From the NCBI GenBank assembly GCA_026003075.1, contig BPGO01000003.1, positions 259,971 through 323,970 of the forward strand: 64,000 bases of DNA, written 5' to 3'. The notes below the pieces were generated by a model that saw only the letters and a program-made list of their open reading frames with translations, had not been told where the DNA came from and ran no database searches. Positions within the stretch are counted from its first letter, which is position 1, and every line of letters begins with the position of its first letter. The position numbers and the translations under genes are program-made. The DNA comes from Fimbriimonadales bacterium. Lineage in GTDB: Bacteria > Armatimonadota > Fimbriimonadia > Fimbriimonadales > GBS-DC. Shown one piece after another: positions 48,944 to 64,000 of this stretch.

Positions 48944-49078
48944 GATATTAACGCAGATAATTGTCGGCAGGTTCCTATGGTTTCCAGAATCCTATGACGG
49001 CTGGAATGCGTCGTGTGGCGTATTTCGGAGCCGCCGCGCAGGAATTTCACTCGTTATGCCCTATTATCTTCGCTGAAG

Positions 49079-50296
49079 ATGACACGCAATCGTTGGACGA
49101 TTCCCGTTGTGCTGGCAGTCACGGTGTTCGTGCATTACATCGACCGCAATAATCTCTCCATCGTGTTGCCCCAGATTGCCCGCGAGTTTGGTTGGAGCGA
49201 TCAGCAGATGGGTCAGTACGGGCAGTATCTCTTGGGGGCGTTTTACCTCACTTTTGGGGCGGCGCAGATTTTGCTCAGTCCTTGGGCGGAGCGGTTCGGC
49301 GTGAAGCGCAGCTTGATGCTTTCGATTGTGGGGTTCTCGGTCTGTACAATGCTTGTGTATCCGCTGGGGGGTTCTTTGGGGGCGTTGATTGGGTTGCGCT
49401 TACTGCTGGGCGCGGCGGAGAGCGTGCATATGCCGATGAACAGCGCGCTGGTGAGCCGTTGGTTCCCTCCGCATGAGCGCGGGCGAGCGAACTCGATTTA
49501 TGTGGCGGGGATCTTGTTGGCGTTGGCGAGTGCGCCGCTGTTGATTATTCCGCTTGCAGAACGGTTCGGCTGGCGGCCGACTTTTGCGCTGCTGGGGGCT
49601 GCAGGGCTGATGGTTAGCGTGCCGTTGGTGGCGACGCTGGTGAGCGATTCGCCACCTCGTGGCTTAGAAGGTCCAACGCACGCGAAGCATCGCCTGAACG
49701 AGACCCTCCAAGCCGTAGACCGTGCTACGCTGTGGCTCTATATCGCAGCGGGGATTTGTAATGCCTTCTGTGTGTTCGGGATATTGAACTGGCTGCCCAG
49801 TTATTTGAACCGCACTCGCGGCATCGAGTTCGGTGAGTTGAGCCTACCGTTGTCTGGGGTGTTTTTGTCGGGCATTCTGGGAATCTTTTTCTGGGCGTAC
49901 TGGGGGGATCGGAGCGGCAAGCGCACCCTGTTGGCAAGCGTGGGGCTGCTGCTTGCAGGGGTATGTGTGCTCCTAACAGCGATTGCGCCCGCGAACGGCT
50001 GGGCAATCGGCTTGCTGGCGTTGGGGGTCTTTTTGCAGAGCAGTTATAACGCTCAGGAGTTTGCCACATTGCAGGGCATGGTACCCTCCGAACGAGTGGG
50101 AGCGATTACGGGGCTTTATAACGGAGCAACGGTGCTGTTCGGTGGGGTGGGAGGGTCGCTCATTCCAGGCACGGTCGTGGCGCTTACAGGGAGTTTTCAG
50201 GCAGGGCTGCTCAGCGTCGCGGTGGGGGCGGGTATGGTGAGCCTGCTTATGGCACTCCTCACGCGGCGCCTCGCGTCACTGGCACGGGTGCTGTGA
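49079..50296 (+). CDS. MFS transporter (ACS-like)
   Basis: YIDRNNLSI, AERFGVKR, RWFPPHERGRAN, about 12 TM. Confidence 0.9.
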   Translation: MTRNRWTIPVVLAVTVFVHYIDRNNLSIVLPQIAREFGWSDQQMGQYGQYLLGAFYLTFGAAQILLSPWAERFGVKRSLMLSIVGFSVCTMLVYPLGGSLGALIGLRLLLGAAESVHMPMNSALVSRWFPPHERGRANSIYVAGILLALASAPLLIIPLAERFGWRPTFALLGAAGLMVSVPLVATLVSDSPPRGLEGPTHAKHRLNETLQAVDRATLWLYIAAGICNAFCVFGILNWLPSYLNRTRGIEFGELSLPLSGVFLSGILGIFFWAYWGDRSGKRTLLASVGLLLAGVCVLLTAIAPANGWAIGLLALGVFLQSSYNAQEFATLQGMVPSERVGAITGLYNGATVLFGGVGGSLIPGTVVALTGSFQAGLLSVAVGAGMVSLLMALLTRRLASLARVL

Positions 50297-50372
50297 GGCA
50301 TATCAGTACGCTTGGAAGATGGCTTTTGGCATAAGCAGGACTCTGCGCGCGGAACGCGAAACAGATTAGTGT

Positions 50373-50633
50373 ATGAAATCGGAGTCGCCGCTACGCGCCT
50401 ACTGGCGTGCGAACGTGCGCCTCATCGCGACGCTGCTTACGGTGTGGTTCGTCACGGCGTATGGCGTCAGCATCGTGTTCGCGCCGTGGCTGAACCAGTT
50501 TCGGCTGGGCAGCACGCCGCTGGGCTTTTGGCTCGCACAGCAGGGCAGTATCTATGTGTTCATTCTGCTCATCTGGATTTACGCCCGCGCAATGGACACG
50601 CTGGATCGACGGTATGAGGTGCATGAAGACTGA
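50373..50633 (+). CDS. Small membrane subunit of sodium:solute symporter (DUF4212-type)
   Basis: YWRANVRLI, PLGFWLAQQGSIYVF; directly upstream of the symporter. Confidence 0.88.
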   Translation: MKSESPLRAYWRANVRLIATLLTVWFVTAYGVSIVFAPWLNQFRLGSTPLGFWLAQQGSIYVFILLIWIYARAMDTLDRRYEVHED

Positions 50634-50671
50634 GCGGGTCGCTAACCGCGCCTATTTCACACGGACGCACG

Positions 50672-52414
50672 ATGACTGTTGAGCAGTGGACCTATCTGAT
50701 TGTAGGGCTGAGCTTCGCGCTCTATATCTATATCGGCTACGCCTCGCGCGTGCGCGATACGAAAGGGTTCTATGTGGCGGGGCGCGGCGTGCCGCCCATC
50801 GCCAACGGCGCAGCGACCGCCGCCGACTGGATGAGCGCGGCGAGTTTTATCTCGATGGCAGGGCTTATCGCCACGCTGGGCTACGACGGCGCCATCTATC
50901 TAATGGGGTGGACAGGCGGTTATGTGCTACTCGCGCTCTTGCTTGCCCCCTACTTGCGCAAGTATCGCAAGTTCACCGTGCCCGATTTCGTGGGCGACCG
51001 CTATGCGTCGCAGACCGCCCGTACGCTCGCCGCGCTGGCGACGATTTTTATCTCGCTCGTGTATGTGGCGGGGCAGATGCGCGGCGTGGGAATCGTGTTC
51101 AGCCGATTCTTAGCCATCGACATCGCTCAAGGCGTGCTGCTGGGCGTGGCAGTAACGGCGTTTTTTGCCATCTTGGGCGGGATGAAAGGCGTCACTTGGA
51201 CGCAAGCCGCGCAGTATACTATCCTGATTATCGCGTATCTCATCCCAGGGGTCGCGCTGGCGTACCTGCTGACGGGCAATCCCATCCCTCAACTTGCGTT
51301 CGCATTCAGCGACATCAGCGAACGGCTTAACCAGCTCCAGACCGATTTGGGCTTTAGCGAGTACACTGCGCCGTTTCAGAGTAAGTCGATGCTCGATGTG
51401 CTGGCGATTACGGGCGCGCTGATGGTTGGCACGGCGGGGCTACCGCATGTGATTATTCGGTTCTACACCACGCCTGATGTGCGCTCGGCGCGCTACTCGG
51501 CGTTCTGGGCGTTGCTGTTTATCGGGCTGCTGTATACCACCGCGCCTGCGCTGGCGATGTTCGCCCGCTACAACTTGATTAACACGCTGCACGGCAAGCC
51601 GATGGAGCAGGTGCGCCAGATTGACTGGGTCGCCAAGTGGGAGCAGACGGGGCTGCTAAAACTCGTGGATAAAAACGGCGACGGCGTCGTGCAGTTCGCG
51701 AAGGGCAAAGCGTTTTTGGAGAAAAGCGGCAAGCCCGACTTCAACGCGCCCGACAGGAGCAACCCCAACGAGGTGTATCTGGACAACGATATTATTGTCC
51801 TCTCTACGCCCGAAGTCGCGCAACTGGCGCCGTTCGTGATTGCGCTGTTGGCGGCTGGGGGGCTGGCGGCTGCGCTCTCGACGGCGTCGGGACTGCTGAT
51901 TGCGATGTCCAGCGCGGTGGCGCACGATTTGTATTATCGGGTGTTCAATCCGCGCGCCCCCGAACGGCTGCGTTTGCTGGTGGGACGGCTGGCGATGGTT
52001 CCTGCGCTGTTCGCCGCGGCGTATCTGGGGATTAATCCGCCCGGTTTTGTAGCGCAGGTGGTGGCGTTCGCGTTCGGCTTGGCGGCGTCGGGGCTGTTCC
52101 CGGCGATTCTGTCGGGGATTTTTGACCGCCGTATGAATGCTCAGGGCGCTATTGCAGGCATGGTGATTGGCTTGGGCTTCACGACCGTGATGATTGCGCT
52201 GATGCGGGCGCCCCAACTCTTCGGCGCGCCTGAACCGTATCTGAAGGACTTCTTCGGGATCAGTGCGGAAGGCATCGGTATCGTGGGTATGGCTCTGAAC
52301 CTGATAACCGCGCTCGTTGTCTCGCGCCTGACGCCGCCGCCCCCCGCACACATTCAGGAGATTGTGGACTCGATTCGCATCCCACGCGGCGCAGGCGAGG
52401 CGTTGGAGGAATAA
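50672..52414 (+). CDS. actP: Cation/acetate symporter, sodium:solute symporter family
   Basis: NGAATAADWMSAASF, GTAGLPHVIIRF, GGLAAALSTASGLL; ends RGAGEALEE. Confidence 0.85.
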   Translation: MTVEQWTYLIVGLSFALYIYIGYASRVRDTKGFYVAGRGVPPIANGAATAADWMSAASFISMAGLIATLGYDGAIYLMGWTGGYVLLALLLAPYLRKYRKFTVPDFVGDRYASQTARTLAALATIFISLVYVAGQMRGVGIVFSRFLAIDIAQGVLLGVAVTAFFAILGGMKGVTWTQAAQYTILIIAYLIPGVALAYLLTGNPIPQLAFAFSDISERLNQLQTDLGFSEYTAPFQSKSMLDVLAITGALMVGTAGLPHVIIRFYTTPDVRSARYSAFWALLFIGLLYTTAPALAMFARYNLINTLHGKPMEQVRQIDWVAKWEQTGLLKLVDKNGDGVVQFAKGKAFLEKSGKPDFNAPDRSNPNEVYLDNDIIVLSTPEVAQLAPFVIALLAAGGLAAALSTASGLLIAMSSAVAHDLYYRVFNPRAPERLRLLVGRLAMVPALFAAAYLGINPPGFVAQVVAFAFGLAASGLFPAILSGIFDRRMNAQGAIAGMVIGLGFTTVMIALMRAPQLFGAPEPYLKDFFGISAEGIGIVGMALNLITALVVSRLTPPPPAHIQEIVDSIRIPRGAGEALEE

Positions 52415-52537
52415 CAAAAGCAGGGATGCAAAACTTGCATCCCTGCCCAATAAACTCTACTGCCTTGGTGACATCATTACGCGCAAGTGGTCTGCCTGAA
52501 ACTCCACCCAGTACACATTTCCGTCGCGATCGACGTC
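52276..52537. repeat. 262-bp direct repeat, copy 1 (actP 3' end, terminator, propeller 3' end)
   Basis: Aligns without gaps to 61901..62162; diverged in the first ~75 bp, near-identical afterwards. Confidence 0.95.
52420..52446. terminator. Hairpin between convergent genes (identical copy at 62045..62071)
   Basis: GCAGGGATGCAA-AAC-TTGCATCCCTGC perfect 12-bp stem. Confidence 0.8.
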
Positions 52538-53794
52538 CCAAAGCGTGCCGCTGTCGATTCCAACTTCCAGCGCAATATCGCGCGCGCGTGAACGAACATA
52601 TTGTCCTTGGGCGTCAAACTCCACTATCCAAAAGCCGTCAATCAACGTCGTGCCTTCTGTCTGATTCGCGTCGGTGTACAGGTATCTTTGTCGCTGCTGC
52701 TGGCGTGTATAGATTTTATAGATACGTCCTTGCTGGTCAAACAGAATGGGTATCTGCAACTTCCAGTTTCGTGCGCCGTTGTAAGCGTCCCACACATTCG
52801 GCAGGTGTCGCGACACATCCAGCTGCCACTGGATGGAGCGCACGATGCTACCTTCTATGGTGAACCAACGGAAGGTAAGTTCAGGCACGACATCGAACAC
52901 TGAATCGTCAAAAACCCGCCGCTCGCGCTCATCGTAGAGGGTCCAGACACGGCGGTCTTCCTGTGGAAGCGACGACGCACTGTAATCCACAACAAGGACT
53001 TGCCCCGTATACCGATTGACAGCAAATGGGTCATAGGTTACCACCGGAAGCACATTCACAGCCCCATCAGGTGAGACCACCAATAGTCGGTCAGACATGG
53101 TAGTAACCTTTTCCTTGCCATCATCCAACGATTCACTTTCAAGAATCCTTTGCATCAGAAAGAAGCATCGACCTGTGTGATCCACTTCCCAAAGTAGGGC
53201 TGATCCAGGGTACAGGTTGTGGGGCGCATAAGCGTTGCGCACTGCCGCTTGAATACGCTCCGAGAGCGTCTTGTTGTAAGTTCCATCAGGGTTGTACACC
53301 TCTGCACCGTCATTCCCCTGCACATAGAGCTTGCCGTCTGCCCCCACGCGCATTCGCCCTGGATCGCCGCGTACAATCTCAATCGCGCGTACCCACCGCC
53401 CCTGACGGTCGTAGACCTGTACGTATGGGTTTGGGGGCGTGCCTGTGCCTATCCGGGAGCGACCTGACTCAGTCTCAGAGTTTGGCGGCAGCATCCGCAC
53501 CGAGTCGTCAAAGAAGAACATCTGCCCATCCCAGCTCACGCAGAAACTGCCAGGCCACGCGCTACTTGCAGTCAGCTCAGGCTCCCGCTCATTCGCTTCA
53601 CTGCCGTCAGATACAGGCGGAAACTTTTCGGGAATCACCATAAGCTGCCCCTGCGCCTTGCCATAGTTAATCTTGAACAATTCTACAGGCGCTCTCCCAT
53701 CTTGTGCTGATGATGGTTCCAGAGCAACCACCGCCAACAACAGAGGCGTTCCTGCGACAAACGCTAATTTCGCCCAAGATTTCATCTTGCTCAT
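52457..53794 (-). CDS. Secreted beta-propeller-like protein, paralogue 1 (candidate immunity protein)
   Basis: Signal peptide ending SSA-QD; family motifs FCVSWDGQ, QVYDRQGRWVR, PNVWD, DVDRDGNVYWVEF, MSPRQ. Confidence 0.85.
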   Translation of the reverse strand: MSKMKSWAKLAFVAGTPLLLAVVALEPSSAQDGRAPVELFKINYGKAQGQLMVIPEKFPPVSDGSEANEREPELTASSAWPGSFCVSWDGQMFFFDDSVRMLPPNSETESGRSRIGTGTPPNPYVQVYDRQGRWVRAIEIVRGDPGRMRVGADGKLYVQGNDGAEVYNPDGTYNKTLSERIQAAVRNAYAPHNLYPGSALLWEVDHTGRCFFLMQRILESESLDDGKEKVTTMSDRLLVVSPDGAVNVLPVVTYDPFAVNRYTGQVLVVDYSASSLPQEDRRVWTLYDERERRVFDDSVFDVVPELTFRWFTIEGSIVRSIQWQLDVSRHLPNVWDAYNGARNWKLQIPILFDQQGRIYKIYTRQQQRQRYLYTDANQTEGTTLIDGFWIVEFDAQGQYVRSRARDIALEVGIDSGTLWDVDRDGNVYWVEFQADHLRVMMSPRQ

Positions 53795-53806
53795 ACGACA
53801 TCCTCC

Positions 53807-54021
53807 TCATTCTGTTTCCCGAATTCTTCGAAAAGTGTAGCCACGTTGTTGCAGCGCGCGTAGCATGTCCATCCATTCCCGCATTACGCGCCTCGAACCC
53901 CGAACGCCCCCCAGAAGCGCAGCAACACCTCTTGCACAAGGTCTTCTGCGTCAGCAGTGCAGTGTGTCCACCGCATCGCGACAGAAAACATCCAGGTTCG
54001 CCACGCGGTCTCGGTAGGCAT
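53807..54021 (-). pseudogene. Internally deleted copy of the sigma/NlpC-P60 gene
   Basis: MPTETAWRTWMF...AEDLVQEVLLRFW matches the N-terminus of 57824..61225, joined out of frame to ...LQQRGYTFRRIRETE*, similar to the family C-termini. Confidence 0.8.
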
Positions 54022-54081
54022 CGATACCTCTCTTGCACTACAATATAATTTAGCACTCTCATGCGAGATTCCTGCTGTTTC

Positions 54082-54285
54082 CAGCCCGAATACTGGATCG
54101 TTGACCCCGACCGCGAGTACGCGGAGTTCTGGCAGTTGGATGAGACGGGCGCATATCGCGTGGCGTTCGCAGGCAGCGAGGGCGTTTATCGCAGTCGCGA
54201 ACTGAACGGCTTTTGGTTGCGCGTGGAGTGGCTGTGGCAGCAGCCTCCGATGGCGACGGTTCTCCAAGAGTGGGGACTGCACTGA
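54082..54285 (+). pseudogene. Uma2 family (PD-(D/E)XK) endonuclease, 3' fragment
   Basis: PEYWIVDP...GVYRSRELNGFWLRVEWLW; the N-terminal part is missing. Confidence 0.8.
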
Positions 54286-54308
54286 CGCTCCTAAGGTATA
54301 CTTTCGGC

Positions 54309-55457
54309 ATGTCGCGTCCTGTCGTGCGTTTGCAAGGAAGCATCCAGAGCCTACGCTTCAACGGGCAGCCCGCGACCTTGCCTAACTATGAATGGAGCGA
54401 TTTCAATATCAATGCAGCCCGTTCTCCATGCAAAGTGCGCTTAGCTGACGGAGCTGGTCTGGCAGTGTCCAAATGGACAGGTCCGAAGCGCACACGCACC
54501 TATCCACTTGCAAAAGTGTACGATACTTACTCGCACAGCGGTAAGATTGTCACTGTTATACCTATCATCAAGGATGAGGGACGCGGCGAGCGAGAAAACG
54601 ACACTAACCTTGACCGAGTGAACTTTATCACGCTGTCATGGATGAACCTGATGGGCGTGTATGTCATCCTCGCCTGGTATTGTGATGCTGATAAGAAAGA
54701 TAACTACCGAATCACGCGCCAGCGATTAGACAACGATTATGTGCGTCAGAAGATTGAAGAAGTAGCACGCTACAAAATGGACGCCCATCACTGGAACCAA
54801 GACCATTTCGTAAACGAGTTTGTTCCTCTCTACGAAAAAGCGTTGCATAGCTACGCATTAATCGCCCAAAAGTTGGGCGTCGCTATGCATTCCCAGCAAA
54901 GGCTACTTTCGTTTCTCGATGCCGTACGTTCTACGGATAATCCGTGCAAGTTAGATCTTGCAAAGTACGCCGAACTTTCTCTCTCGGCGTCCGAGCGCGC
55001 TGCATTACGAGAGACCGCTACTGAACATCGGATGGAGCGTGTCCAAGTAGGGAACGCCAAGGGCTTCTTTGAGATACATAACTACTTGGGCGGCGTGTAC
55101 TACCTGACTGCTGATGAGGTTATCCTGAATGGGGGCAATCAGGCTATCATACAGGAGAGCAAGAACACCACCAAGCGTCTCCTACCTTCACTGAGCGACA
55201 TCAAGGATGGTCTGTTCAAGCTTTTACTGTTCTCGCAGCTTCAAGAGTTACGACTTGGAGGGGCGTCGCTACAGTTTCGTACCCGACTGCGCTTAACGGG
55301 CGTCTTTAGGGGGAAACTGGAGCTACCTGCCGAACCTGAGGTGTTGAAATCGTTCACTACAGGCTGGGGAGAGCCTGTTCGCCGAAGTTTGCTCTGGCTG
55401 AATGAGGAACTGAGGCGACTTAGCATAGAGGGCTTCCTGGAGGGAACTCACTCATGA
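54309..55457 (+). CDS. Putative type II restriction endonuclease
   Basis: Overlaps (ATGA) a Dam-like methylase; TADE...QESK resembles a PD-(D/E)XK motif; specificity unknown. Confidence 0.65.
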   Translation: MSRPVVRLQGSIQSLRFNGQPATLPNYEWSDFNINAARSPCKVRLADGAGLAVSKWTGPKRTRTYPLAKVYDTYSHSGKIVTVIPIIKDEGRGERENDTNLDRVNFITLSWMNLMGVYVILAWYCDADKKDNYRITRQRLDNDYVRQKIEEVARYKMDAHHWNQDHFVNEFVPLYEKALHSYALIAQKLGVAMHSQQRLLSFLDAVRSTDNPCKLDLAKYAELSLSASERAALRETATEHRMERVQVGNAKGFFEIHNYLGGVYYLTADEVILNGGNQAIIQESKNTTKRLLPSLSDIKDGLFKLLLFSQLQELRLGGASLQFRTRLRLTGVFRGKLELPAEPEVLKSFTTGWGEPVRRSLLWLNEELRRLSIEGFLEGTHS

Positions 55458-56350
55458 CAAAGAGTCCACTTCGCTTTCCTGGCGGCAAGTCGCGGGCGAT
55501 TGGGCAGATTCTCCCTCTGATACCTGACTTTGACGAATATCGCGAGCCGATGGTCGGAGGCGGCTCGGTTCTGTTGGCGTTGCGCCAGCGTTCTCCGCAG
55601 CGCAGGTACTGGATGAACGACCTCAACTACGAACTCTATTGCTTCTGGAAGGTCGCTCAGGAGTGCGCCGACCGCCTCGCGGATACGCTCCATCGCCTGC
55701 ACAGCGAGACTCAGGATGGTAGGACGCTGTTCTATCGCCTGTTGGAACGCTATGGGCAGGGTGACGAGTTCGAGCGCGCCGTGCGCTTCTTTGTGTTGAA
55801 TCGCATCACTTTCTCAGGGACAGTAGACTCAGGCGGCTACTCGGAGCAGGCGTTTCGCGGACGGTTCACCCCTTCTGCGATTGAGCGCATCCGACAAGTT
55901 GCGCCTCTGTTGCAAGGTGTACGAATCACCCACGGGGATTACGAACCCGTATTGCGCGAAGCAGGCGATGAGGTGTTCATCTTTTTAGACCCGCCGTACT
56001 ACTCCGCGACGAACTCGCGTCTGTATGGCAAACGCGGCGAACTGCACCTAAACTTCGATCATCATCGTCTGGCGCGGGTGCTGAACCAGGTCGCGCATCG
56101 CTGGCTGCTTACTTATGACGACAGCCCCTTTATTCGCGAGCTGTACGCTGACTATGCGCAGGTACGATGGACGCTGCAGTACGGAATGAATAACTACAAG
56201 CAGCCGTGTGCGCGTGCTGGGCGTGAGTTATTCATCGCGAACTACCCGATTCAGGCGCGGGATTCCTCGCCGCAACTCGCTTTAGTTTTCGAGAGGAACT
56301 GGAGCCGTTTCTATTCCACTGCAGGCGCAGGCGAAGCGTTGGAGGAGTAG
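55454..56350 (+). CDS. DNA adenine methyltransferase (Dam/D12 family) with actP-like C-terminal tail
   Basis: SPLRFPGGKSR, EPMVGGGSV, NDL, FLDPPYY, ELFIANY; ends AGAGEALEE. Confidence 0.92.
   Translation: MTKSPLRFPGGKSRAIGQILPLIPDFDEYREPMVGGGSVLLALRQRSPQRRYWMNDLNYELYCFWKVAQECADRLADTLHRLHSETQDGRTLFYRLLERYGQGDEFERAVRFFVLNRITFSGTVDSGGYSEQAFRGRFTPSAIERIRQVAPLLQGVRITHGDYEPVLREAGDEVFIFLDPPYYSATNSRLYGKRGELHLNFDHHRLARVLNQVAHRWLLTYDDSPFIRELYADYAQVRWTLQYGMNNYKQPCARAGRELFIANYPIQARDSSPQLALVFERNWSRFYSTAGAGEALEE
56324..56350 (+). repeat. 27-bp copy of the actP 3' end
   Basis: ggcgcaggcgaagcgttggaggagtag versus 52388..52414 ggcgcaggcgaggcgttggaggaataa: 24/27 identical, differences synonymous. Confidence 0.85.
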
Positions 56351-56446
56351 GGTGTCCCCCAGCACGGGTGAGAACCGATTTTGGCTGCGGGTGGAGGGTT
56401 AGGGAACGCGATGGCGGTAAGGCGCGCTCACCCCATCGCGCCCTAA

Positions 56447-57808
56447 TCATCGCGGCGACATCTTGACCTCCAAGTGATCGGGATGGAACTCTATCCAGTA
56501 CACATTACCATGTTTATCCACATCCCACAGGTTAATCAGCCGCCCGACCAAGTTCTCCTGATGTCCATAGCTGCCTATCAGGCGCAGATTCGAAGCGCGA
56601 GGACGGACAAAACGCCCATCCGGCGTGAACTCAATAATCCAGAAGCCGTCCATCAGGGCTATGCCACGATCCGGGTCAGCAGGATCGTCCACCGTAATCC
56701 AATGGCGGCGTGTCGCGCTATAGACCCGATAGAGATGTCCCGCCTCATCCGTCGCAATCGCAAGGTGTCTCTCCAGGTTCACCGTGCCCACAAACCCATC
56801 CCACACATTCGGAACGCGGTCCGAAATGTCCAGATGCCAGACGAACTTCCTGACCACCTCGCCATCAGGACGAACACGCTTGTACGGATCCTTTCTAAAG
56901 AGCGTGATTGTATCGGTTTGGGGTTCCTCGTCAGAGCGCGAGTGGATCACAACAAACTGAACCTCCATCCGCCCCTCCGCTCGTACATCGTAATCGCCTA
57001 TGATAATCTCGCCCCGATAGCGGTCGATTCCCGCCTGATCATATGATGGGTAATCCAGCAGATTGGATCCCCCATCTGGATGGATGACCAGCAAGCGTCC
57101 TTCCAATTGCTTTGTTCCACCCTCTTCAGAAACGATTTGGCGAGCCAAGAAGTAGACCCTTCCGTTGCGATCCACCTCAAAAAACTCAGGTGTGGCGACT
57201 TCTGAGTCTAAGCGAAACTCTGTTGCCGCCCGTTTGATCGCCTCCCCCACTGCCTCCGTGCGCTGCTTGTCGTAGGTTCCGTCGGGGCGGTAGATGGCGA
57301 CACCACGCTTGGCATCGTCCACATAGAGCCAGCCTTGTTCGTCCACCCGAATTCGGGAGGGGAAGCCGTGTTTGAGTTTGATGGTGCGCACCCACTGTCC
57401 CTGACGATTGTAGACCTGCACCCACGGCGCCAGCTGGTCATCTTCTGTAGAGGTCTCTGCTTGAGGGGGTAGCTCGAGATTCTTGTCATAGTGGCGCAGA
57501 GGGTCGGCGATGTAAAACAGTTGCCCATCCCAGCTGACACAGAAGGTCGTGGGTCCACCGCCTGGTAGCGGTTCCCGCAACTCGTCGCCGTTCACCTCGC
57601 TGATCAGCCGTGAGCCAGGAAAGCGCACCCGCAGCTGGGTCGGCTTCTCACCGTAGGCAACTTTGAACAGGGAGACGGGCCGTGAGTCGGTTTGGATAGG
57701 AGGCGTTCGTCCAAAGCTCACGGCTGCAATGGTCAGCAAGCTAATCAGCACCAGCAACATCGGTGCGAGTTCACTCAGGGTTTCACTCTTTCGTAGGGTT
57801 TTTCGCAT
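56447..57808 (-). CDS. Secreted beta-propeller-like protein, paralogue 2
   Basis: Hydrophobic leader; FCVSWDGQLFY, QVYNRQGQWVR, GIDRYRGEII, PNVWD, DVDKHGNVYWIEF, MSPR. Confidence 0.85.
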   Translation of the reverse strand: MRKTLRKSETLSELAPMLLVLISLLTIAAVSFGRTPPIQTDSRPVSLFKVAYGEKPTQLRVRFPGSRLISEVNGDELREPLPGGGPTTFCVSWDGQLFYIADPLRHYDKNLELPPQAETSTEDDQLAPWVQVYNRQGQWVRTIKLKHGFPSRIRVDEQGWLYVDDAKRGVAIYRPDGTYDKQRTEAVGEAIKRAATEFRLDSEVATPEFFEVDRNGRVYFLARQIVSEEGGTKQLEGRLLVIHPDGGSNLLDYPSYDQAGIDRYRGEIIIGDYDVRAEGRMEVQFVVIHSRSDEEPQTDTITLFRKDPYKRVRPDGEVVRKFVWHLDISDRVPNVWDGFVGTVNLERHLAIATDEAGHLYRVYSATRRHWITVDDPADPDRGIALMDGFWIIEFTPDGRFVRPRASNLRLIGSYGHQENLVGRLINLWDVDKHGNVYWIEFHPDHLEVKMSPR

Positions 57809-57823
57809 GGCTCTCACCTCAAC

Positions 57824-60800
57824 TTAGTTTTGGAGTTGCTGCAATCGGCGCAGGCGATAGGTTCTTCCTGATTTGTCTTCGCGCTCCATCAGGTCGCCCA
57901 CCGTATCGGGACGCAAACGCGGGTTACCGCGTGTTGGTAGCGTTAGATGCTCCCCGTCGTTGATGGACACCCTATTATAGCGCCCCGAAGAGTCGATTAC
58001 GTCCACCCAAATATAATAGTCTGTTAGCTCGTTAGTTTTCTTATGTCTTATCTCGTCCCGCCGTGTAAACTCGACGATGAGGGCGACGTGGCTTCCTCTT
58101 TTGACGAGGATATCGCCTGGCTGGGCATTCAGGCGGGCTTGTTTATTGTCGTCCCAGCCGCGCGTGTAGGGATAACTGCCGCTGGCTAAATGTTCGGTTC
58201 CGATATCCCACCAGCGTCTGGTCTGTCGCCTGTCGTCCTGTCGCCTATCCCAACCCAATCCTGCCATCATCGCCGCTGCACTGATAAGTTTGGAGCAATC
58301 GATGCCAAATCCCTGATAGCCGCCCTCTGTGCTACTATCGCGCGTTGTAGGATGGACACGCCCTCCAAACCAGCAACCGCCCCACTCATACCTCACGCCG
58401 ATAAACGCCGTCGCCCACTCCACTACGCGCAAACGATAGTTGGCGTCGCTCCCTTCAAAACGCTCACGCACCGACAGACGCATTGCGGCAGTAGCCTCCT
58501 CGCCACGCCTGTCCAGTCTAGCAAATATTTTTCTTCTCCCACTTACATATTCGTCCCAGTCGCTCTTGGGAATTTTCCCGATCCCTGATACCAGATAGTA
58601 GTCCCAGTCTTGATGAGTCACGGCAACGGCGTACCGTTTTGTGCCACGTTCTGCCCTGAATGAGTAGGTGGGTAAGTTACCTTCAATCTGTCGAAGGGTG
58701 TACCAGTAGATTCGGTTGGGGCGTTCTCCTGTGTGATGATGAACCTCCAACCAGCGGAATTCGAGTTTTGGACCAGGCCAGACACCACATCGTGAAAGGT
58801 CACTAACAGAACGCGAGAAGAAATTATTATCTGGGCGCTGTTCTCCTCGTGACCAGGATACATTCCCAATATAAATACCAGAAGGCTGACGAGTGTATAC
58901 TATACCTTCAGGAAAGTCGATCTCACTATACCCACCGGTTATTACAGGTATCAATTCTATCTCGGTACCGACATAAGGATAGAGCAATTCCTGATTGCTA
59001 CTTGTTGCACCTCCACGAACTGCGTAGAAGATACCTACATTAAAGATTTGATACGTTGTGAACTTAGGTGCAACGCCAACTTTTACCTGCCTTGGATGGT
59101 TATCACGATAGTAGCCTGCAAAATTATCAGTGAAGCGGGGTATAAAGTGATAGGTTCCGAACCGAGTCATCTGGTTCTCAGGAATGCGCACAATAACTGT
59201 ATGTTCGCCTTCAGTAAAATATGCCGAGTCGATATTTTCAGAATGGATAGGATTGCGCACATCATTCCCAAAATGAACGTCGATGTGTCCACGCGACACC
59301 AAAGGGGTTCTTTGGAGATTAGAACGGGTGTTCTGCAGACGATACCTGATAGCAAAGTCAAAGGTGCGTTGTTGTGAGTTGTATCCCAAGGCAGTCAGGT
59401 TGAGCAGATCCATATGCACCCAACTTGCTGTGGTATCTACATTCACGAAGGAGCCTATAAAAGTTCCCAGACTCGCTGCAATTTGGTAGGGCACCTCGTT
59501 CTCTAATCCACTGTAGGGCGTGCGTTGTATCTGGACGAGGACGCGACCCGGCAGATTAGTATTATTCACTGAATGCGTCGTCGTACCTGTCTGCACCTGC
59601 AGAAGTAAATCGCCCTGCCAGTGGGGTGAAATCAGATCCAGCTCCACAGTCTGCGTTTGTTCTGTCTCAGAAAAGATGATCCAGTCGTCACTGGCTATAC
59701 GCACGAGAGGGTTGCTTACATTGAAACGGAACTCTTTTTTACAAACCCTACCTGCGCCATTTGTCGAATACTGGAGATAGGTCACTTCTGCAGTGTTTTC
59801 CCCGTTCGGCATCCCGATATCTGCTCTTCCAACATCGTTGTTCCAACCATAGGTGTAGTCAAGGGTTCCCTCTTTAGAGCCGCTTAGGCATCGGCAATAT
59901 TCACGGATCCCATAGGGGTCGTTGCATTCCCAGTAGTCCAAGTACAACCTGCGTTCTGGAAACGCCCCCTCGGGGCGATTATTTTTGAAGGTTACATAAC
60001 TGAAGTAAAGCGTGGGCGGTTCAGGCGAATCCGCAGCATAGAACTTGTACATATCCGCAACTGTGGTCGTGCATCTGAGCGATTCATGGTCATGTTCGAC
60101 AAAATAGTACTCCAACCCAACACGGAAGTCTGCGCATCTACCTGGTAGGAAGCAGCCTGGCTCGCCGATTCGGCAAAATGACCCTAATAAAGTTCCACCT
60201 ATTCCAAACTGCGGAAAGTTGAACCTCACTTGGAATGAACTTGGCTGCAGCGTCGATTGCAACGCAAAAATGAATTGCCCATTCTCGTTCGTAAGGGGAT
60301 GATTCCCGATCCAGTGGATCGTGCCCGCGGTTGTATGGATTTCCACAACAGCACCCGGCACTGGTTTGCCATCAACGTCCCGAATCGTTATCGCTCCCCA
60401 AATTAGGCTCTCGCCATCGGCAGGGACGCTCGGCATATGCAGTCCTGCTCTCACTTGATATCCATTCTCCAAAGCCTGCGTCAGTGTTCCATTCTGAAGA
60501 GCGGCGCTAAGCACTTCATTTGCTATCTGGTTCTCTCGGTCAGTCTGAGCAAAAGATAACTTAGGAGGGTACACTACTACACCCATCGTCAATAGGATTA
60601 CCACAGCGCGAACTTGTCTTGCAGCGAGCGAGGCAAGCACTCTATCCCCCCCCCCCGCGCTTTCATCCAGCGGAAAGACTGGTTGATCATCAACATCAGC
60701 ACCTCCGCCAATTAATTCGCTCTCTGCTCCCCAAAAGGTTGACAGCATAGTCTGTGCTTTTTGACGCATTCGGCAGAATTGGCATTTGACGGTTCCCACA

Positions 60801-61225
60801 CTGACATTTAGGCGGCGTGCAATCTCCTGATAGGTATATCCCTCCAGATAAAGATGGAGCATCTCCTGCTGTTGGGGAGAGAGCTGCTCCTCAAGCCTCT
60901 GTCGAAGCAGCTGCATTTCGGCGTGTTCTATAAGGCGGGTTTCAGAACCCTCGTGACCCTCGGGTAAAGGAGCATCCCAGTTTTCAAGCGTGATGTTTCG
61001 TTGCGTTGGTGCGCGACGGTTCCAATCAATGGTGCGAAGGCGAAGCCAGCGTCGGCAAACGGTTCGCGCCCACTGATGCGGGTGATATTCCCAAGGCAGG
61101 ACACCGAACACCTCCCAAAACTGCAGCAGGACCTCTTGCACGATGTCTTCTGCGTCTGCGGCGCAGCGCGTCAAGGGCTGGGCTACAAAAAGCATCCAAG
61201 CACGCCATTCAGTCTCAGTACACAT
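57824..61225 (-). CDS. ECF sigma-70-like domain joined through a G11 tract to signal peptide, invasin-type Ig domain and C-terminal NlpC/P60 domain
   Basis: AEDIVQEVLL (region 2); LSPQQQ...EGYTYQEIARRLNVSVGTVK (region 4); SFA-Q; VPADGES...RDVDGKPVPGAVVE...TNENGQ; GVRYEWGG...GIDCSKL...QPGDILV..GSHV. Confidence 0.85.
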   Translation of the reverse strand: MCTETEWRAWMLFVAQPLTRCAADAEDIVQEVLLQFWEVFGVLPWEYHPHQWARTVCRRWLRLRTIDWNRRAPTQRNITLENWDAPLPEGHEGSETRLIEHAEMQLLRQRLEEQLSPQQQEMLHLYLEGYTYQEIARRLNVSVGTVKCQFCRMRQKAQTMLSTFWGAESELIGGGADVDDQPVFPLDESAGGGDRVLASLAARQVRAVVILLTMGVVVYPPKLSFAQTDRENQIANEVLSAALQNGTLTQALENGYQVRAGLHMPSVPADGESLIWGAITIRDVDGKPVPGAVVEIHTTAGTIHWIGNHPLTNENGQFIFALQSTLQPSSFQVRFNFPQFGIGGTLLGSFCRIGEPGCFLPGRCADFRVGLEYYFVEHDHESLRCTTTVADMYKFYAADSPEPPTLYFSYVTFKNNRPEGAFPERRLYLDYWECNDPYGIREYCRCLSGSKEGTLDYTYGWNNDVGRADIGMPNGENTAEVTYLQYSTNGAGRVCKKEFRFNVSNPLVRIASDDWIIFSETEQTQTVELDLISPHWQGDLLLQVQTGTTTHSVNNTNLPGRVLVQIQRTPYSGLENEVPYQIAASLGTFIGSFVNVDTTASWVHMDLLNLTALGYNSQQRTFDFAIRYRLQNTRSNLQRTPLVSRGHIDVHFGNDVRNPIHSENIDSAYFTEGEHTVIVRIPENQMTRFGTYHFIPRFTDNFAGYYRDNHPRQVKVGVAPKFTTYQIFNVGIFYAVRGGATSSNQELLYPYVGTEIELIPVITGGYSEIDFPEGIVYTRQPSGIYIGNVSWSRGEQRPDNNFFSRSVSDLSRCGVWPGPKLEFRWLEVHHHTGERPNRIYWYTLRQIEGNLPTYSFRAERGTKRYAVAVTHQDWDYYLVSGIGKIPKSDWDEYVSGRRKIFARLDRRGEEATAAMRLSVRERFEGSDANYRLRVVEWATAFIGVRYEWGGCWFGGRVHPTTRDSSTEGGYQGFGIDCSKLISAAAMMAGLGWDRRQDDRRQTRRWWDIGTEHLASGSYPYTRGWDDNKQARLNAQPGDILVKRGSHVALIVEFTRRDEIRHKKTNELTDYYIWVDVIDSSGRYNRVSINDGEHLTLPTRGNPRLRPDTVGDLMEREDKSGRTYRLRRLQQLQN

Positions 61226-61349
61226 CTGTACCCCCTAAGTATTATACATTACTATTAGTTACACACAGACAAGATTCCTGCCATTTAGGTACCGAATTGG
61301 CGAGGCCATGCGGAACCTTGTTTGCCTGAGTCAGGTACACTTTGTCCTG

Positions 61350-62039
61350 ATGAGGACTCTCTGCCGTGCGCCCGAAGTGTGGCGCGACATGGGACTGACC
61401 GACGCCGAGTACCAACGCATTGCGGACCTGATGGGACGCGAGCCGACCGATGTGGAACTGGGCATGTTCGCCGTGATGTGGTCGGAACACTGCGGTTATA
61501 AATACTCGCGCCCGGTATTGAGCCTCTTTAAAAGGTATCGCGAGTCGCTGGAGGGCGCAGGCTTTGAGAACGCAGGCGTGATACCGCTGGATGAGAATCT
61601 GGGCGTCGCGTTCAAGGTGGAGAGCCATAACCATCCTTCGGCGGTGGAACCTCATCAGGGGGCGGCGACGGGCGTGGGGGGCATCATCCGCGATATCTTC
61701 ACGATGGGCGCCCGCCCTATCGCGATTTTGGACTCGCTGCGCTTTGGTCCCTTGAACGAGCCGCGCAACCGCTACCTGTTTGAGCATGTGGTGGAGGGCA
61801 TCTCCAGCTACGGCAACTGCATCGGCGTGCCGACGGTTGCGGGCGAGGTCTATTTCCATCCGTGTTATTCGGGCAACCCGTTGGTGAACGCGATGGCGGT
61901 CGGCGTCGTGGGGATGGCGCTGAACCTGCTGACGGCGATTATCGTCTCGCGCCTGACGCCCCCACCTCCTACGCATATTCAGGAGATTGTGGACTCGATT
62001 CGCATTCCGCGCGGCGCAGGCGAGGCGTTGGAGGAATAA
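61350..62039 (+). pseudogene. purL: purL 5' fragment fused in frame to an actP 3' end
   Basis: [46 protein letters not shown], then [20 protein letters not shown]...GAGEALEE. Confidence 0.92.
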
Positions 62040-62162
62040 CAAAAGCAGGGATGCAAAACTTGCATCCCTGCCCAATAAACTCTACTGCCTTGGTGACATC
62101 ATTACGCGCAAGTGGTCTGCCTGAAACTCCACCCAGTACACATTTCCGTCGCGATCGACGTC
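61901..62162. repeat. 262-bp direct repeat, copy 2
   Basis: Matches 52276..52537. Confidence 0.95.
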
Positions 62163-63368
62163 GCACAATCTGTTGGCGAAATCGGTTTCCAGCGGCAGAT
62201 TGCGCGCACGCACACTTCTGAAATGACCCTGTGCGTCGAACTCCACGATTGCGAAGCCCCGATCTACGGTAAGCCATTCTCTCGCAGAAGCGGTCGGAAT
62301 AGCATGCCGCTCGATACGGGACGCCAGGTAAATCCGATATAGACGACCTTCGTTGTCCGTCATCACATTATCTGGCAACCAGCCGCGATAGGTGAATACA
62401 TACGCATCGAAAAGATTAGGCGCGTGCTGCGCGATGTCTACTTGCCACGAGAAGGTTCTCAAGACCTCACCGCTTGAATCGACGACCTTGTAAGGGAGAG
62501 ATGTATAAAGGTTGCACTGTTCCCTTTTGATTTCACGCTGTTCGCCAACGTCGTACAAGACGGTTTCATGCTGCCGAATGTATCCCTCTGTGAGAGGACG
62601 CTGGTAGTTAGCGGTGATGATTTCCCCACGATACCGATCAATACCCAGTGGGTTGAAAATTTCTATCGGGACAAGACGAGTCTGACCGTCTGGCGAAACG
62701 ATTAGCAGATTGTTTAGTCCTGACTCACCTTCTGGCACAGCCTCGCGACTCAAGAACACCCAGAAATAGATGCGTCCAAGACTATCTACCTCGCGAAAGA
62801 TGACCTTTTCCAAGTTATACTGGACACGCGCCGCACGTACCGAGCGTTGTAGCTGTTCAGACAAGGTCTTGTTGTAGCTCCCGTCAGAGTTGTAGACCTC
62901 CACCCCTTCATCGCCGCCAACATACAGGCGTCCGTCCCGATCCACCCGAAAATAGGAAGGGCGTCCCTTAATTATCTTGATCGTTCTCACCCATTCTCCC
63001 CTTCGGTTGTACACCTGTATCCACGGGGGCGATTCTTCCTTGGCTTCACGGACAGGAGTGTTCTCGTCGTCAAATTTAGGTATGGCGCGCATTGAGTCGC
63101 AAAAGTAAAAGAGTTGTCCATCCCAACTGACGCAGAAGTTGTCGACGCCCCCATACGGAGGGTCTTCCTCACCCTCCTCAGCGTCATCGCGTGAACAAAA
63201 CAGCACCATGCGCAGCTGCTGAGGATGGTCGCCAAACTTCACCTTGAACAGTTCCTGCTCTCGCGGTTGGGCAAGAGCGAGCCTTCCCAACGGCAGAACA
63301 GTGAGTAGAGCGAGCAGTATCGCTGTAAGCAGTCGCCAATCCCTTAGTGTTCGTCGATTATGTCGCAT
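62082..63368 (-). CDS. Secreted beta-propeller-like protein, paralogue 3
   Basis: Signal peptide ending ALA-QP; FCVSWDGQLFY, QVYNRRGEWVR, GIDRYRGEII, DVDRDGNVYWVEF, MSPRQ. Confidence 0.85.
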   Translation of the reverse strand: MRHNRRTLRDWRLLTAILLALLTVLPLGRLALAQPREQELFKVKFGDHPQQLRMVLFCSRDDAEEGEEDPPYGGVDNFCVSWDGQLFYFCDSMRAIPKFDDENTPVREAKEESPPWIQVYNRRGEWVRTIKIIKGRPSYFRVDRDGRLYVGGDEGVEVYNSDGSYNKTLSEQLQRSVRAARVQYNLEKVIFREVDSLGRIYFWVFLSREAVPEGESGLNNLLIVSPDGQTRLVPIEIFNPLGIDRYRGEIITANYQRPLTEGYIRQHETVLYDVGEQREIKREQCNLYTSLPYKVVDSSGEVLRTFSWQVDIAQHAPNLFDAYVFTYRGWLPDNVMTDNEGRLYRIYLASRIERHAIPTASAREWLTVDRGFAIVEFDAQGHFRSVRARNLPLETDFANRLCDVDRDGNVYWVEFQADHLRVMMSPRQ

Positions 63369-63371
63369 AGC

Positions 63372-64000
63372 TTACCTCCTTCTATCGGGAATGCGTCGAA
63401 CTTGATACCCGTGCGTGTTTGCATCCATGAGCCTTCTTAAGGCACACTGATGCCGTCCCGTGCGGTGATTTCCAGAAGCCTGCTGAGTCTGAATACGAAC
63501 CCTATTCGCGCTCGCACCCGTTGACTCGAGTAGATCGATGCGAGTTACCAAGTAGTCAGCAGTCTCTCCTCTTTCGTCCGCGATCGGGGTTTTATCGATA
63601 CCGTATACGAACATCACATGGCCTCTCCATTTCACTCTTTCTACCAGCTGACCAGTTCTCTGGTCGCGTACCCAATATGTCTCTGTACGACGCACTAAGA
63701 TGTCCCCTCTATCAATCTGGATTCGCGCCTCTCTCTCAGAAGAAAAGCCGTTTGTATAGCTTGACCCCATAAGCATGCCCGTGTTTATCTCTCTCCAATC
63801 TGCCGGCCAGGTAATTCCTTCCATTCGCGCGGCGGAAGTAACTAATTTGGAGCAGTCGATCCCGAAACCTTGATAGCCCCTTGACAAGTCCCTTAATTCA
63901 GGGTGTACATATCCTCCGAACCAGCAGCCGCCCAGCTCATATCGCACATTCTGAAACGCTGTCGCCCACTCCAGCAAGCGCAGCCGATAGTTTGTGTCGC
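63372..64000 (-). CDS. NlpC/P60 C-terminal region of another family member (5' end outside the window)
   Basis: NYRLRLLEWATAFQNVRYELGGCWFGG...GYQGFGIDCSKL...GDILV...GHV, homologous to the C-terminus of 57824..61225. Confidence 0.88.
   Translation of the reverse strand, partial: DTNYRLRLLEWATAFQNVRYELGGCWFGGYVHPELRDLSRGYQGFGIDCSKLVTSAARMEGITWPADWREINTGMLMGSSYTNGFSSEREARIQIDRGDILVRRTETYWVRDQRTGQLVERVKWRGHVMFVYGIDKTPIADERGETADYLVTRIDLLESTGASANRVRIQTQQASGNHRTGRHQCALRRLMDANTHGYQVRRIPDRRR

Follow-up and report, generated by a model that had tools for sequence, protein, structure and literature searches.

The window analysed here, a 64 000 nt stretch (C3:259971-323970), comes from the binned genome of a hot-spring member of the Armatimonadota (Fimbriimonadales-like; 18 contigs, 2.6 Mb, 84% complete, 1.2% contamination). 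Beside a sodium:solute symporter (SSF) gene it carries three minus-strand units, in each of which a large gene, or what is left of one, is followed after 3–12 nt by the gene of a smaller secreted protein (Table 1). We refer to the two products as the enzyme and the propeller, and number both by unit. Unit 2 is complete, unit 1 has kept its propeller gene and lost most of its enzyme gene, and unit 3 leaves the window within the enzyme gene. An initial annotation, made from the bare letters, had recognized these units and proposed that they form an effector–immunity array. Its description of the genes held up well: the open reading frames (ORFs) and their translations place the three units where it had put them, each with a close-set partner bearing a signal-peptide-like N-terminus (445, 456 (453 from the first Met) and 428 residues), and the two NlpC/P60 regions readable in the window have EWATAF..VRYE.GGCWFGG and GIDCSKL in common before they diverge.

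Table 1. Features of the variable region and of the large gene of unit 2, in window coordinates.
Feature	Position	Strand	Remarks
SSF gene	50672..52414	+	Pfam PF00474, E 1.3e-54; bounds the variable region on the left
Direct repeat, copy 1 (266 nt)	52275..52540		92% identical to 61900-62165
Propeller 1 (445 aa)	52457..53794	-	intact, signal-peptide-like N-terminus; orphan, enzyme gene deleted
Sigma + enzyme deletion remnant	53807..54021	-	sigma N-terminus of ~45 codons, from ATG at 54021
Type II restriction endonuclease	54213..55457	+	PADLOC REase_II, E 1.4e-56; inserted defence cassette
D12-class N6-adenine DNA methyltransferase	55454..56350	+	Pfam PF02086, E 1.1e-36; PADLOC MTase_II, E 2.1e-130
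Propeller 2 (456 aa from GTG, 453 from first Met)	56447..57817	-	partner of the complete enzyme gene
Large sigma–enzyme ORF (1133 aa)	57824..61225	-	complete in the window
Variable C-terminal module of enzyme 2 (residues ~709-1133)	57824..59101	-	at least one beta-sandwich plus the NlpC/P60 domain
Divergent NlpC/P60 domain of enzyme 2 (residues 897-1133)	57827..58537	-	Cys977 in GIDCSKL, His1046 in SHVALIV
Conserved stalk of enzyme 2 (residues ~225-708)	59102..60552	-	Big_1-like Ig domain and further beta-sandwiches
Hydrophobic leader of enzyme 2 (signal peptide or signal anchor)	60553..60645	-	ends in ...RQVRAVVILLTMGVVVYPPKLSFA, followed by QT; by inspection
Poly-G tract, 11 G as assembled	60646..60656	-	at the boundary between the conserved sigma/purL part and the variable cassette
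ECF-type sigma-70 family gene, regions 2 and 4	60657..61225	-	NCBIfam TIGR02937, 65.6 bits (cut-off 42.9)
Chimeric ORF purL'::SSF' (243 codons)	61308..62039	+	Pfam AIRS and FGAR-AT linker; C-terminus matched to SSF
Direct repeat, copy 2	61900..62165		begins at junction J1
Propeller 3 (428 aa)	62082..63368	-	partner of enzyme 3
Enzyme gene 3, 3' part	63372->64000	-	whole gene 976 aa, end beyond the window at C3 326272

As assembled, the large ORF of unit 2 joins an extracytoplasmic function (ECF)-type sigma factor to an exported protein. The exported part opens with a hydrophobic leader, and it is at this leader that homologues of the enzyme begin, with N-termini that look like signal peptides on inspection of the translations; homologues in the databases have 885–970 residues. 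The stalk that follows gives a Pfam match to Big_1 below the cut-off (E 4.5e-7). AlphaFold2 strands depict it as a chain of β-sandwiches, Foldseek matches it to multidomain chains of the immunoglobulin (Ig), FN3 and macroglobulin types and to S-layer proteins, and it ends in the motif FTDNFAGYYRD. The variable module, with the NlpC/P60-like domain at its end, makes up the remainder. Besides the sigma, Big_1-like and NlpC/P60 matches, no Pfam domain was found in the large protein.

Among 1.84 billion representative sequences, 84 relatives of the NlpC/P60-like domain were found. We aligned 78 of them with the query (79 sequences), leaving out two very short sequences, two fragments, one protein of 3226 aa and the genome's own copy. 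C81 is invariant across this alignment, and Y50, G53, G54, G78, D80, G141, D142, H150 and V151 are conserved in at least 90% of the sequences. The motifs come in the canonical NlpC/P60 order, Y.WGG, G.DCS, GD and HV, and then a polar third residue. Asp1078, in VIDSSG, is the candidate third catalytic residue of enzyme 2, and the type-B alleles of the domain carry GHV and LLESTG; a candidate third acidic residue is seen only in close homologues. Five of the 79 sequences reach PF00877 at E ≤ 0.001. Against the Protein Data Bank (PDB), the 79-sequence profile matched 13 sequences at E ≤ 0.01 (best 8er5, 8.4e-7), among them an NlpC/P60 domain protein, RipA, entries named 'invasion protein', MT2245, CwlO and Spr, and one named merely 'putative uncharacterized protein'; a profile from just seven close homologues matched no NlpC/P60 chain in the PDB. 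Because the conservation across the 79 sequences, the PDB matches and the retained Cys and His agree, we accept the domain as a member of the NlpC/P60 superfamily, on its motifs a divergent one in which the catalytic residues are intact. By family analogy, the enzyme would be a peptidoglycan endopeptidase or amidase.

The partner is, on its structural model, a secreted β-propeller, as the initial annotation had supposed. AlphaFold2 folds propeller 2 as an all-β protein with a mean predicted local distance difference test score (pLDDT) of 84.2 and a predicted template modelling score (pTM) of 0.84. In the structure search that the initial annotation had suggested, Foldseek returned at least 500 matches at E ≤ 0.001; NHL, methylamine dehydrogenase and WD-type propellers ranked first, and TM-scores to the target were modest (0.33–0.60). 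The N-termini of the propellers resemble Sec signal peptides without a lipobox, by inspection. No Pfam, NCBIfam or PADLOC family matched the propellers, and in the ESM Atlas they match just generic NHL/SGL-like clusters. Their own family comprises 28 clusters, all unnamed apart from 'hypothetical', from hot-spring and mat sources and from Armatimonadota bins. The motifs that the three window propellers had been said to share are present in the translations and reach further into the family: F92, C93, S95, W96, D97 and G98, then Q134, V135 and Y136, and finally D432, V433, D434, G437, N438, V439, Y440 and W441 are invariant in 19 members. The divergence that had been claimed alongside them is equally plain, propeller 1 being 37–41% identical to propellers 2 and 3.

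Each of the five intact enzyme genes seen, in units 2 and 3 and at the loci of three other genomes (L001, L002, apparently the locus of genome G350, and L003), has a propeller gene directly after it. Within the pairs, the identity of the propellers tracks that of the NlpC/P60 domains and not that of the stalks, in each of four comparisons. Enzyme 3 is 98.8% identical to enzyme 2 in the stalk (residues 225-705), 45.6% in the middle region (715-915) and 46.3% in the domain (916-1133), and the two propellers are 43% identical. P0039, an enzyme from another metagenome, shows the reverse pattern relative to enzyme 2, with lower identity in the stalk (73.5%) and higher identity in the middle region (86.6%), the domain (88.5%) and the propeller (88.5%). 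The values for L002 against enzyme 2 are 32.8%, 29.4%, 62.2% and 68% respectively. In the fourth comparison, the tail of enzyme 3 is 62.5% identical to that of the Fimbriimonadales genome SKW30, which has the same domain type, and the propellers are 66.4% identical.

The drop in identity between enzymes 2 and 3 is sharp and falls at residue ~708, just after FTDNFAGYYRD; in a self-comparison of the genome, the DNA homology of the two genes starts at C3 319055, which is window position 59085. We also compared positions 50000–64000 of the window with the Logan contigs of four runs from four studies (X1–X4, X1 being the probable source run), without counting as absence the parts of the window that lack contigs in X2–X4. 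Contigs of X2, X3 and X4 diverge from the window at 59118-59121, at the same module boundary.

Propeller genes have also outlived their enzymes. All three orphan propellers, those of unit 1, of unit B past the end of the window and of contig C8, have a remnant of an enzyme tail beside them. Two intact propellers adjoin deleted enzyme genes. The remnant in unit 1 combines a sigma N-terminus (66.7% identical to sigma residues 1-42 by tblastn) with ∼23 codons, in another frame, that resemble the C-terminal tail of the large gene, and a direct repeat, 53897-54028 and 61101-61232, is 73% identical. The propeller of unit B, propeller 2', and that of C8 each lie beside a 55-residue remnant of an enzyme tail; propeller 2' is 97.6% identical to propeller 2, with a ratio of non-synonymous to synonymous changes (dN/dS) of 0.24. 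The C8 propeller (C8 7056-8163) is broken into ORFs of 210 and 238 aa by a frameshift or a sequencing error. A contig of run X2 (record 10) carries propeller 1 at 0 mismatches with a full-length enzyme gene upstream, and the enzyme of unit 1 therefore exists elsewhere.

We also considered whether the two proteins are predicted to bind one another, a co-fold having been among the suggested checks. Residues 897-1133 of enzyme 2 were co-folded with residues 45-456 of propeller 2, using self-made alignments, so that the calibration of the interface score (interaction prediction score from aligned errors, ipSAE) holds roughly. The median ipSAE was 0.87, compared with 0.00 for the best of three controls, a mark reached by 58 of 80 solved complexes and by 2 of 110 mismatched pairs. 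At least 73% of contacts are shared between the runs; the pLDDT of the propeller is 85 or more, and that of the NlpC/P60 chain 66–72. The predicted interface takes in residues 976 and 978, which flank Cys977, and residues 1042-1045 just before His1046. It also includes the WG of Y.WGG, the C-terminal tail and a hairpin at 1052-1064, which in the alignment follows the His in type-A alleles and precedes it in type-B alleles. The model thus supports binding of propeller 2 to the NlpC/P60 domain over its active-site region. Among the three window propellers, mean pairwise identity is 0.146 at the interface and 0.424 elsewhere (p = 2e-8), and for the enzyme domain the corresponding values are 0.383 and 0.536 (p = 0.0013). 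The predicted interface would then be the most variable surface of both partners, in a comparison made without a control for solvent exposure.

The sigma factor at the head of the unit has regions r2 and r4 at residues 8-160 of the large ORF (Pfam Sigma70_r4_2, E 4.1e-11). It is followed by the poly-G tract, whose length, as read from the sequence, sets the reading frame. With G11, as in unit 2 of the window, sigma and enzyme form one chain of 1133 aa. With G9 or G12, the sigma frame stops at a TAG just past the tract, and the enzyme has its own start, ATG AAA GCG (MKARGGG..., signal-peptide-like), inside the end of the sigma gene. Four other copies in the genome have G12. On flanks of the copy-2 type we read G12 in X1, G9 in X3, G9 in X4 and, at low depth, G11 in X2 (record 13), so that three of the four other data sets covering the tract have lengths that separate the two proteins; these lengths come from contigs, which drop minority variants. 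In the intact copy of unit 3 the sigma factor is a separate gene of 194 aa (67.5 bits on TIGR02937), and SKW30 has separate genes for a sigma factor (191 aa) and an enzyme (∼940–971 aa by start codon, with a plain signal peptide) and no tract. We believe that the G11 fusion is a minority state or a homopolymer error, and that sigma is normally a separate, overlapping gene. The unit's own ECF sigma, as the initial annotation had put it, is therefore accepted in part: it stands at the head of the unit in this genome and in one more, but is normally encoded separately and is missing upstream of the pair in a third.

The length of the tract differs between populations and alters the reading frame, as in phase variation. 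The tract is also where repeats end, since end points from a self-BLAST of the genome fall on it. In unit B and in C8, G12 fuses sigma to the protein of another cassette, and G10 or G13 would separate them. Several observations accompany these. The first copy of the unit 3 sigma gene (C3:326265-326790) is split into two frames near codon 36–40, and the second (C3 340828-341412), within a nearly identical repeat, is intact at 194 aa. Another ECF-like sigma gene (C2:293868-294500; 31.9% identity over 141 aa) has a G10 tract ∼220 nt downstream, and the genome holds 20 G/C runs of at least 9; the combination of a sigma gene with a G-tract may thus recur in this genome. A G-quadruplex-type recombination signal was considered and set aside, a single run of 11–12 G being too short to argue for one.

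The three units had been described as a tandem array, and they are repeated in tandem without being simply adjacent. A type II restriction–modification (R-M) gene pair (54213-56350, plus strand) separates unit 1 from unit 2, and the purL'::SSF' chimera separates unit 2 from unit 3. The 3' end of the SSF gene is repeated after each unit. It forms part of the 266-nt direct repeat, together with a spacer bearing a hairpin and the 3' end of a propeller gene; the last ∼34 nt of the methyltransferase gene (56313-56346) are an SSF 3'-end remnant (88% match); and in the chimeric ORF ∼200 codons of the purL N-terminus are joined at J1 (∼61900-61910) to the last ∼46 SSF codons. We take the chimera to be the scar of a segmental duplication. 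Since each unit bears its own SSF 3'-end scar, each was once directly beside SSF. No inverted repeats were found in 48000-64000, and the ORFs examined include no transposase or integrase. An identical GC-rich hairpin (GCAGGGATGCAA...TTGCATCCCTGC) lies at 52415-52456 and at 62040-62081, between the propeller gene and the convergent SSF gene or chimera, and is likely to be a two-way terminator copied along with the duplication. Over the R-M cassette, a contig of X2 joins the end at 56352 back to the start at 54155 across 12 intervening letters, which would fit a cassette that is repeat-bounded, tandem or circular in that population. A minus-strand ORF at 61242-62075 (277 aa, Arg/His-rich) was rejected as an antisense shadow of the purL fragment.

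By tblastn and self-BLAST, the array runs 18.6 kb past the window to the end of C3. There it continues with the rest of unit 3, a purL fragment::SSF fusion, unit B, J1 again and a further copy of unit 3, in which a stretch of 7.3 kb recurs at 99.89% identity. The fusion (junction J2, C3 327937/327943) joins a longer purL fragment to SSF from ∼nt 180 and shows microhomology. Unit B consists of propeller 2' with its enzyme remnant, and then a different cassette. Contig C8 starts at the right side of J2, including 7 purL-derived bases, and contains unit B in a different version, with genes for DruA, NurA and HerA, followed by a full purL; C3 probably continues into C8.

This raises the question of whether the row exists in any one cell, or whether the assembly of a binned and incomplete genome has strung together alternative alleles of one hypervariable locus from co-existing strains. 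The end of C3 and the start of C8 fall at the same purL::SSF junction, the 7.3-kb stretch recurs nearly unchanged, and assemblies of the same genus also break within 0.85–1.8 kb of the SSF gene. In X1, where word depth is not copy number, the contig of propeller 3, which the assembly contains twice, has a word depth of 137.8, close to that of propeller 1 (131.6) and of single-copy neighbours (118–132); a variant contig of X1 joins 56329 to 62013 and so omits unit 2, at a depth of 40.7 compared with 78.3 for the unit-2-specific contig. Against this, J1 lies inside the window and cannot come from the collapsed alleles of a simple bubble. It is bridged by a contig from a different study (X3 record 21, 61484-62039, 1 mismatch), and the purL'::SSF' chimera therefore exists outside this assembly; other contigs leave at 61906-61910 into true purL. 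The microhomology at J2 and the purL-derived bases at the start of C8 fit real duplication, as do the separate SSF remnants of the units. We conclude that at least some genomes really carry the tandem structure seen within the window and that unit 2 is polymorphic in the population. An artefact, improbable for the array overall, is largely excluded inside the window, though not past it, where the duplicated stretch may be over-assembled.

The locus has the character of an accessory one. In a survey of Armatimonadota, which the initial annotation had suggested for the gene pair, 5 of 401 genomes yielded members of the propeller family, with strong matches confined to the source genome and G350, and the pair recurs at L001, L002 and L003. 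The enzyme family is missing from both same-genus genomes of 98–99% completeness (G355 and G400). The slot beside SSF holds the type II R-M pair here, and DruA, NurA and HerA genes in the C8 version. The latter (C8 2205-6240, minus strand), a candidate defence trio, encode DruA (PF14236, E 2.1e-111), a NurA-domain protein and a HerA-like ATPase. In the same-genus genomes, the slot holds a PIN-like toxin gene with a small upstream ORF (G355:C109 1-846) and MtnA-like and Uma2-like genes (G400:C65 1-1500), all named from their translations; both contigs end within 0.85–1.8 kb of the SSF 3' end. The source genome encodes two Omp85 proteins, so that the cell is diderm and has a periplasm.

Two described kinds of system resemble this locus. 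Tsi1, a partial β-propeller, inhibits the NlpC/P60-type amidase Tse1 (PMC3391265), and the Tse1/Tsi1 pair of Pseudomonas aeruginosa (Tae1/Tai1) likewise sets a papain-like Cys-His peptidoglycan hydrolase beside an adjacent exported all-β, propeller-type protein that sits at the active site. Tse1, however, is a small single-domain protein fired by a type VI secretion system, whereas the domain here ends a Sec-exported protein of ∼950 aa that bears an Ig-like stalk, and has a complete propeller of ∼400 aa as its partner. We saw no sequence relationship of Tse1 or Tsi1 to either protein; Tsi1 is absent among the 50 Foldseek matches listed for propeller 2, with no search having been aimed at it. 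The second likeness is to polymorphic toxins, both contact-dependent inhibition (CDI), Rhs and Sec-dependent ones, among which Zhang et al. (2012, PMC3482391) list NlpC/P60 toxin domains (Tox-NlpC/P60). As described there, such loci have a constant N-terminus that gives way at a sharp boundary to a variable C-terminal enzyme module, a cognate partner directly downstream, and displaced or orphan modules nearby, and all of these, with a partner that co-varies, are found here. Our locus differs in that the large protein has no known trafficking, repeat or pre-toxin domain, its boundary motif being FTDNFAGYYRD; the variable module takes in a β-sandwich besides the enzyme domain; the partner is a β-propeller; and each unit opens with an ECF sigma and a poly-G tract. 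By analogy, the locus would work like Tse1/Tsi1 and the Sec-dependent polymorphic toxins, while belonging by sequence to neither. A full-text search of the literature found no description of an immunity pair of NlpC and propeller. The initial annotation, which recognized the architecture from no described system, has nevertheless to be corrected in view of these analogues.

Other likenesses concern single aspects of the locus. Pesticin with Pim and colicin M with Cmi are pairs in which a released protein kills via the wall or its precursors and the producer exports an immunity protein to its own periplasm, an arrangement similar to that proposed here; those bacteriocins have defined receptor-binding and translocation domains and enzyme folds different from NlpC/P60. 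In clostridia, TcdR, BotR, TetR and UviA are dedicated alternative sigma factors encoded beside the toxin or bacteriocin gene that they control. They form a separate subgroup in Firmicutes, whereas the sigma factor here matches the general ECF superfamily model TIGR02937 and would have a comparable regulatory role only by inference. Homopolymer tracts make contingency loci phase-variable in Neisseria, Haemophilus and Campylobacter; here, too, a run of 9–12 G at the start of an exported protein's gene varies in length and frame between data sets, but both frames are productive, giving separate or fused proteins, rather than on and off. The G11 state, finally, yields an ECF sigma with a membrane segment and a large extracytoplasmic part, as in ECF sigmas with membrane-spanning C-terminal extensions such as ECF52 and SCO4117 (PMC5826349), except that the fusion here hinges on one base of a homopolymer tract.

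We interpret the locus as a strain-variable polymorphic effector–immunity locus, a reading that seems to us about evenly poised between holding and failing. Adjacency, co-variation, the mosaic boundary, the retention of orphans and the position in a defence and competition hotspot together make it the most economical one. A full unit would comprise the ECF sigma, an overlapping gene for a Sec-exported enzyme of ∼930–980 aa and, 3–12 bases downstream, the gene for a Sec-exported propeller. In the producer's periplasm, the propeller would bind the cognate NlpC/P60 domain across its active-site face and block the enzyme, which, once released, would attack the walls of relatives without a matching propeller. 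At the fixed point just after FTDNFAGYYRD, recombination would swap the enzyme module together with its propeller, and propellers whose enzyme gene has been deleted would be retained as orphan protection. The row would have arisen through segmental duplications in the interval from SSF to purL, the two genes on its flanks, and through defence cassettes inserting at this one place. The sigma factor probably drives the operon, and the slippery poly-G tract at the overlap may set whether sigma and enzyme are separate proteins or one membrane-tethered chain. Of the initial proposal, then, the effector–immunity pairing is partly supported, with adjacency, domain–propeller co-variation, predicted binding, mosaic alleles and retained propellers in its favour; it needs correcting in that sigma is normally a separate gene and that described analogues exist.

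Several results weigh against this reading. The NlpC/P60 domains of enzymes 2 and 3 both fall below the PF00877 cut-off of 23 bits (15.0 bits, E 0.025, and 13.5 bits, E 0.071), and in the AlphaFold2 model of residues 225-1133, built from 8 sequences, the domain, for which a papain-like fold would be expected, is left unfolded and mostly at pLDDT <50 (model residues 699-803 and 865-909). The co-fold covers one cognate pair and no non-cognate pair, and so bears on binding, not on specificity, and the residues of the predicted interface lie in surface loops, which are in general prone to variation. The pair at the G350/L002 locus has no sigma gene, with ThuA upstream instead. In unit B and in C8, the same slot, sigma and poly-G tract serve a second type of cassette (positions 7183-11848 of C3:323971-342559, and C8 8336-12993, minus strand), in which a large protein, 963 or 1065 aa long, combines a PKD domain and a proline-rich linker with an extensive unassigned C-terminal part and is paired with a secreted, partly coiled-coil-looking protein of 487–490 aa; it has no recognisable toxin domain, and neither protein matches a known family. 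No delivery device was found, only the Sec-type leader, and a protein of ∼100 kDa would have to cross the outer membrane of its target. TssC (PF05943) was the one secretion-system component looked for, and the genome, 84% complete, yielded none. According to Zhang et al. (2012, PMC3482391), no immunity protein had been known to contain a β-propeller domain. We infer, moreover, rather than observe the peptidoglycan substrate, inhibition by the propeller, the killing of others, export beyond Sec and the role of sigma.

Some of these points would be natural if the enzyme were a periplasmic or surface autolysin that remodels the cell's own wall, with the propeller as its dedicated regulator or inhibitor and with the ECF sigma tying expression to envelope stress; diversity would then reflect relaxed constraint, or pressure from phages or predators, rather than warfare between bacteria. 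Sec-type leaders and an outer membrane would place both proteins at the cell's own peptidoglycan, the solved relatives RipA, CwlO and Spr are housekeeping endopeptidases, ECF sigmas typically serve envelope responses, and the missing delivery system is no difficulty. A housekeeping function should nevertheless be conserved, and this pair is absent or rare among relatives; nor would one expect alleles as different as 37–46% identity in one locus, intact propellers outliving their enzymes, or a sharp recombination boundary and a hypervariable interface, which are typical of conflict systems. We regard such self-directed remodelling as unlikely, though deserving of attention. Less probable still is a variable surface structure, in which the NlpC/P60-like domain, carried by the long Ig-like stalk, binds rather than cuts, the propeller is a docking or assembly partner, phages using the structure as a receptor drive its diversity and slippage in the poly-G tract is phase variation. 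The resemblance of the stalk to adhesin, S-layer and macroglobulin-like β-sandwich chains, the differing tract lengths across data sets at the start of the gene and the company of anti-phage systems would all suit it. The invariant Cys and largely kept His, on the other hand, argue for an active enzyme, predicted contacts around the active site fit inhibition better than docking, and partner genes kept without the stalk protein are hard to explain.

A sigma/anti-sigma arrangement, in which the large protein is a membrane sensor holding the ECF sigma and the propeller is a co-sensor, appears very improbable. In its favour, the large gene starts within the end of the sigma gene immediately ahead of it, its product begins with a hydrophobic segment, and membrane-tethered ECF sigma fusions such as ECF52 are known (PMC5826349). 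We rejected the large protein as an anti-sigma factor, however: Pfam finds no anti-sigma family in it, the ∼20 residues ahead of the hydrophobic segment in the separately read form are too short for any known anti-sigma domain, homologues start with plain signal peptides, and the pair occurs without sigma in G350/L002.

An extension of the effector–immunity reading is that the cassette is a self-wired, phase-variable weapon. Slippage in the tract would switch between a free sigma with an exported effector and a membrane-tethered sigma–effector chain, tying sigma activity to the export or release of the effector; the tract would also be the point at which cassettes are swapped behind the same sigma, the propeller would represent a new class of immunity protein, and the purL'::SSF' scars would form an archive of alleles. 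We offer this fuller scheme as speculation, and doubt that it will hold as a whole.

If the effector–immunity reading is correct, polymorphic systems of this kind extend to the Armatimonadota, and a complete β-propeller joins the known immunity folds. The locus would then supply natural sets of matched and mismatched enzymes and inhibitors with a compact hypervariable interface, suited to studying how specificity evolves. It shows a single intergenic slot gathering genes of defence and competition, and illustrates how the scars of tandem duplication help to distinguish real arrays from artefacts of assembly. The poly-G tract, finally, offers a testable case in which the physical state of a sigma factor may depend on a slippery repeat.

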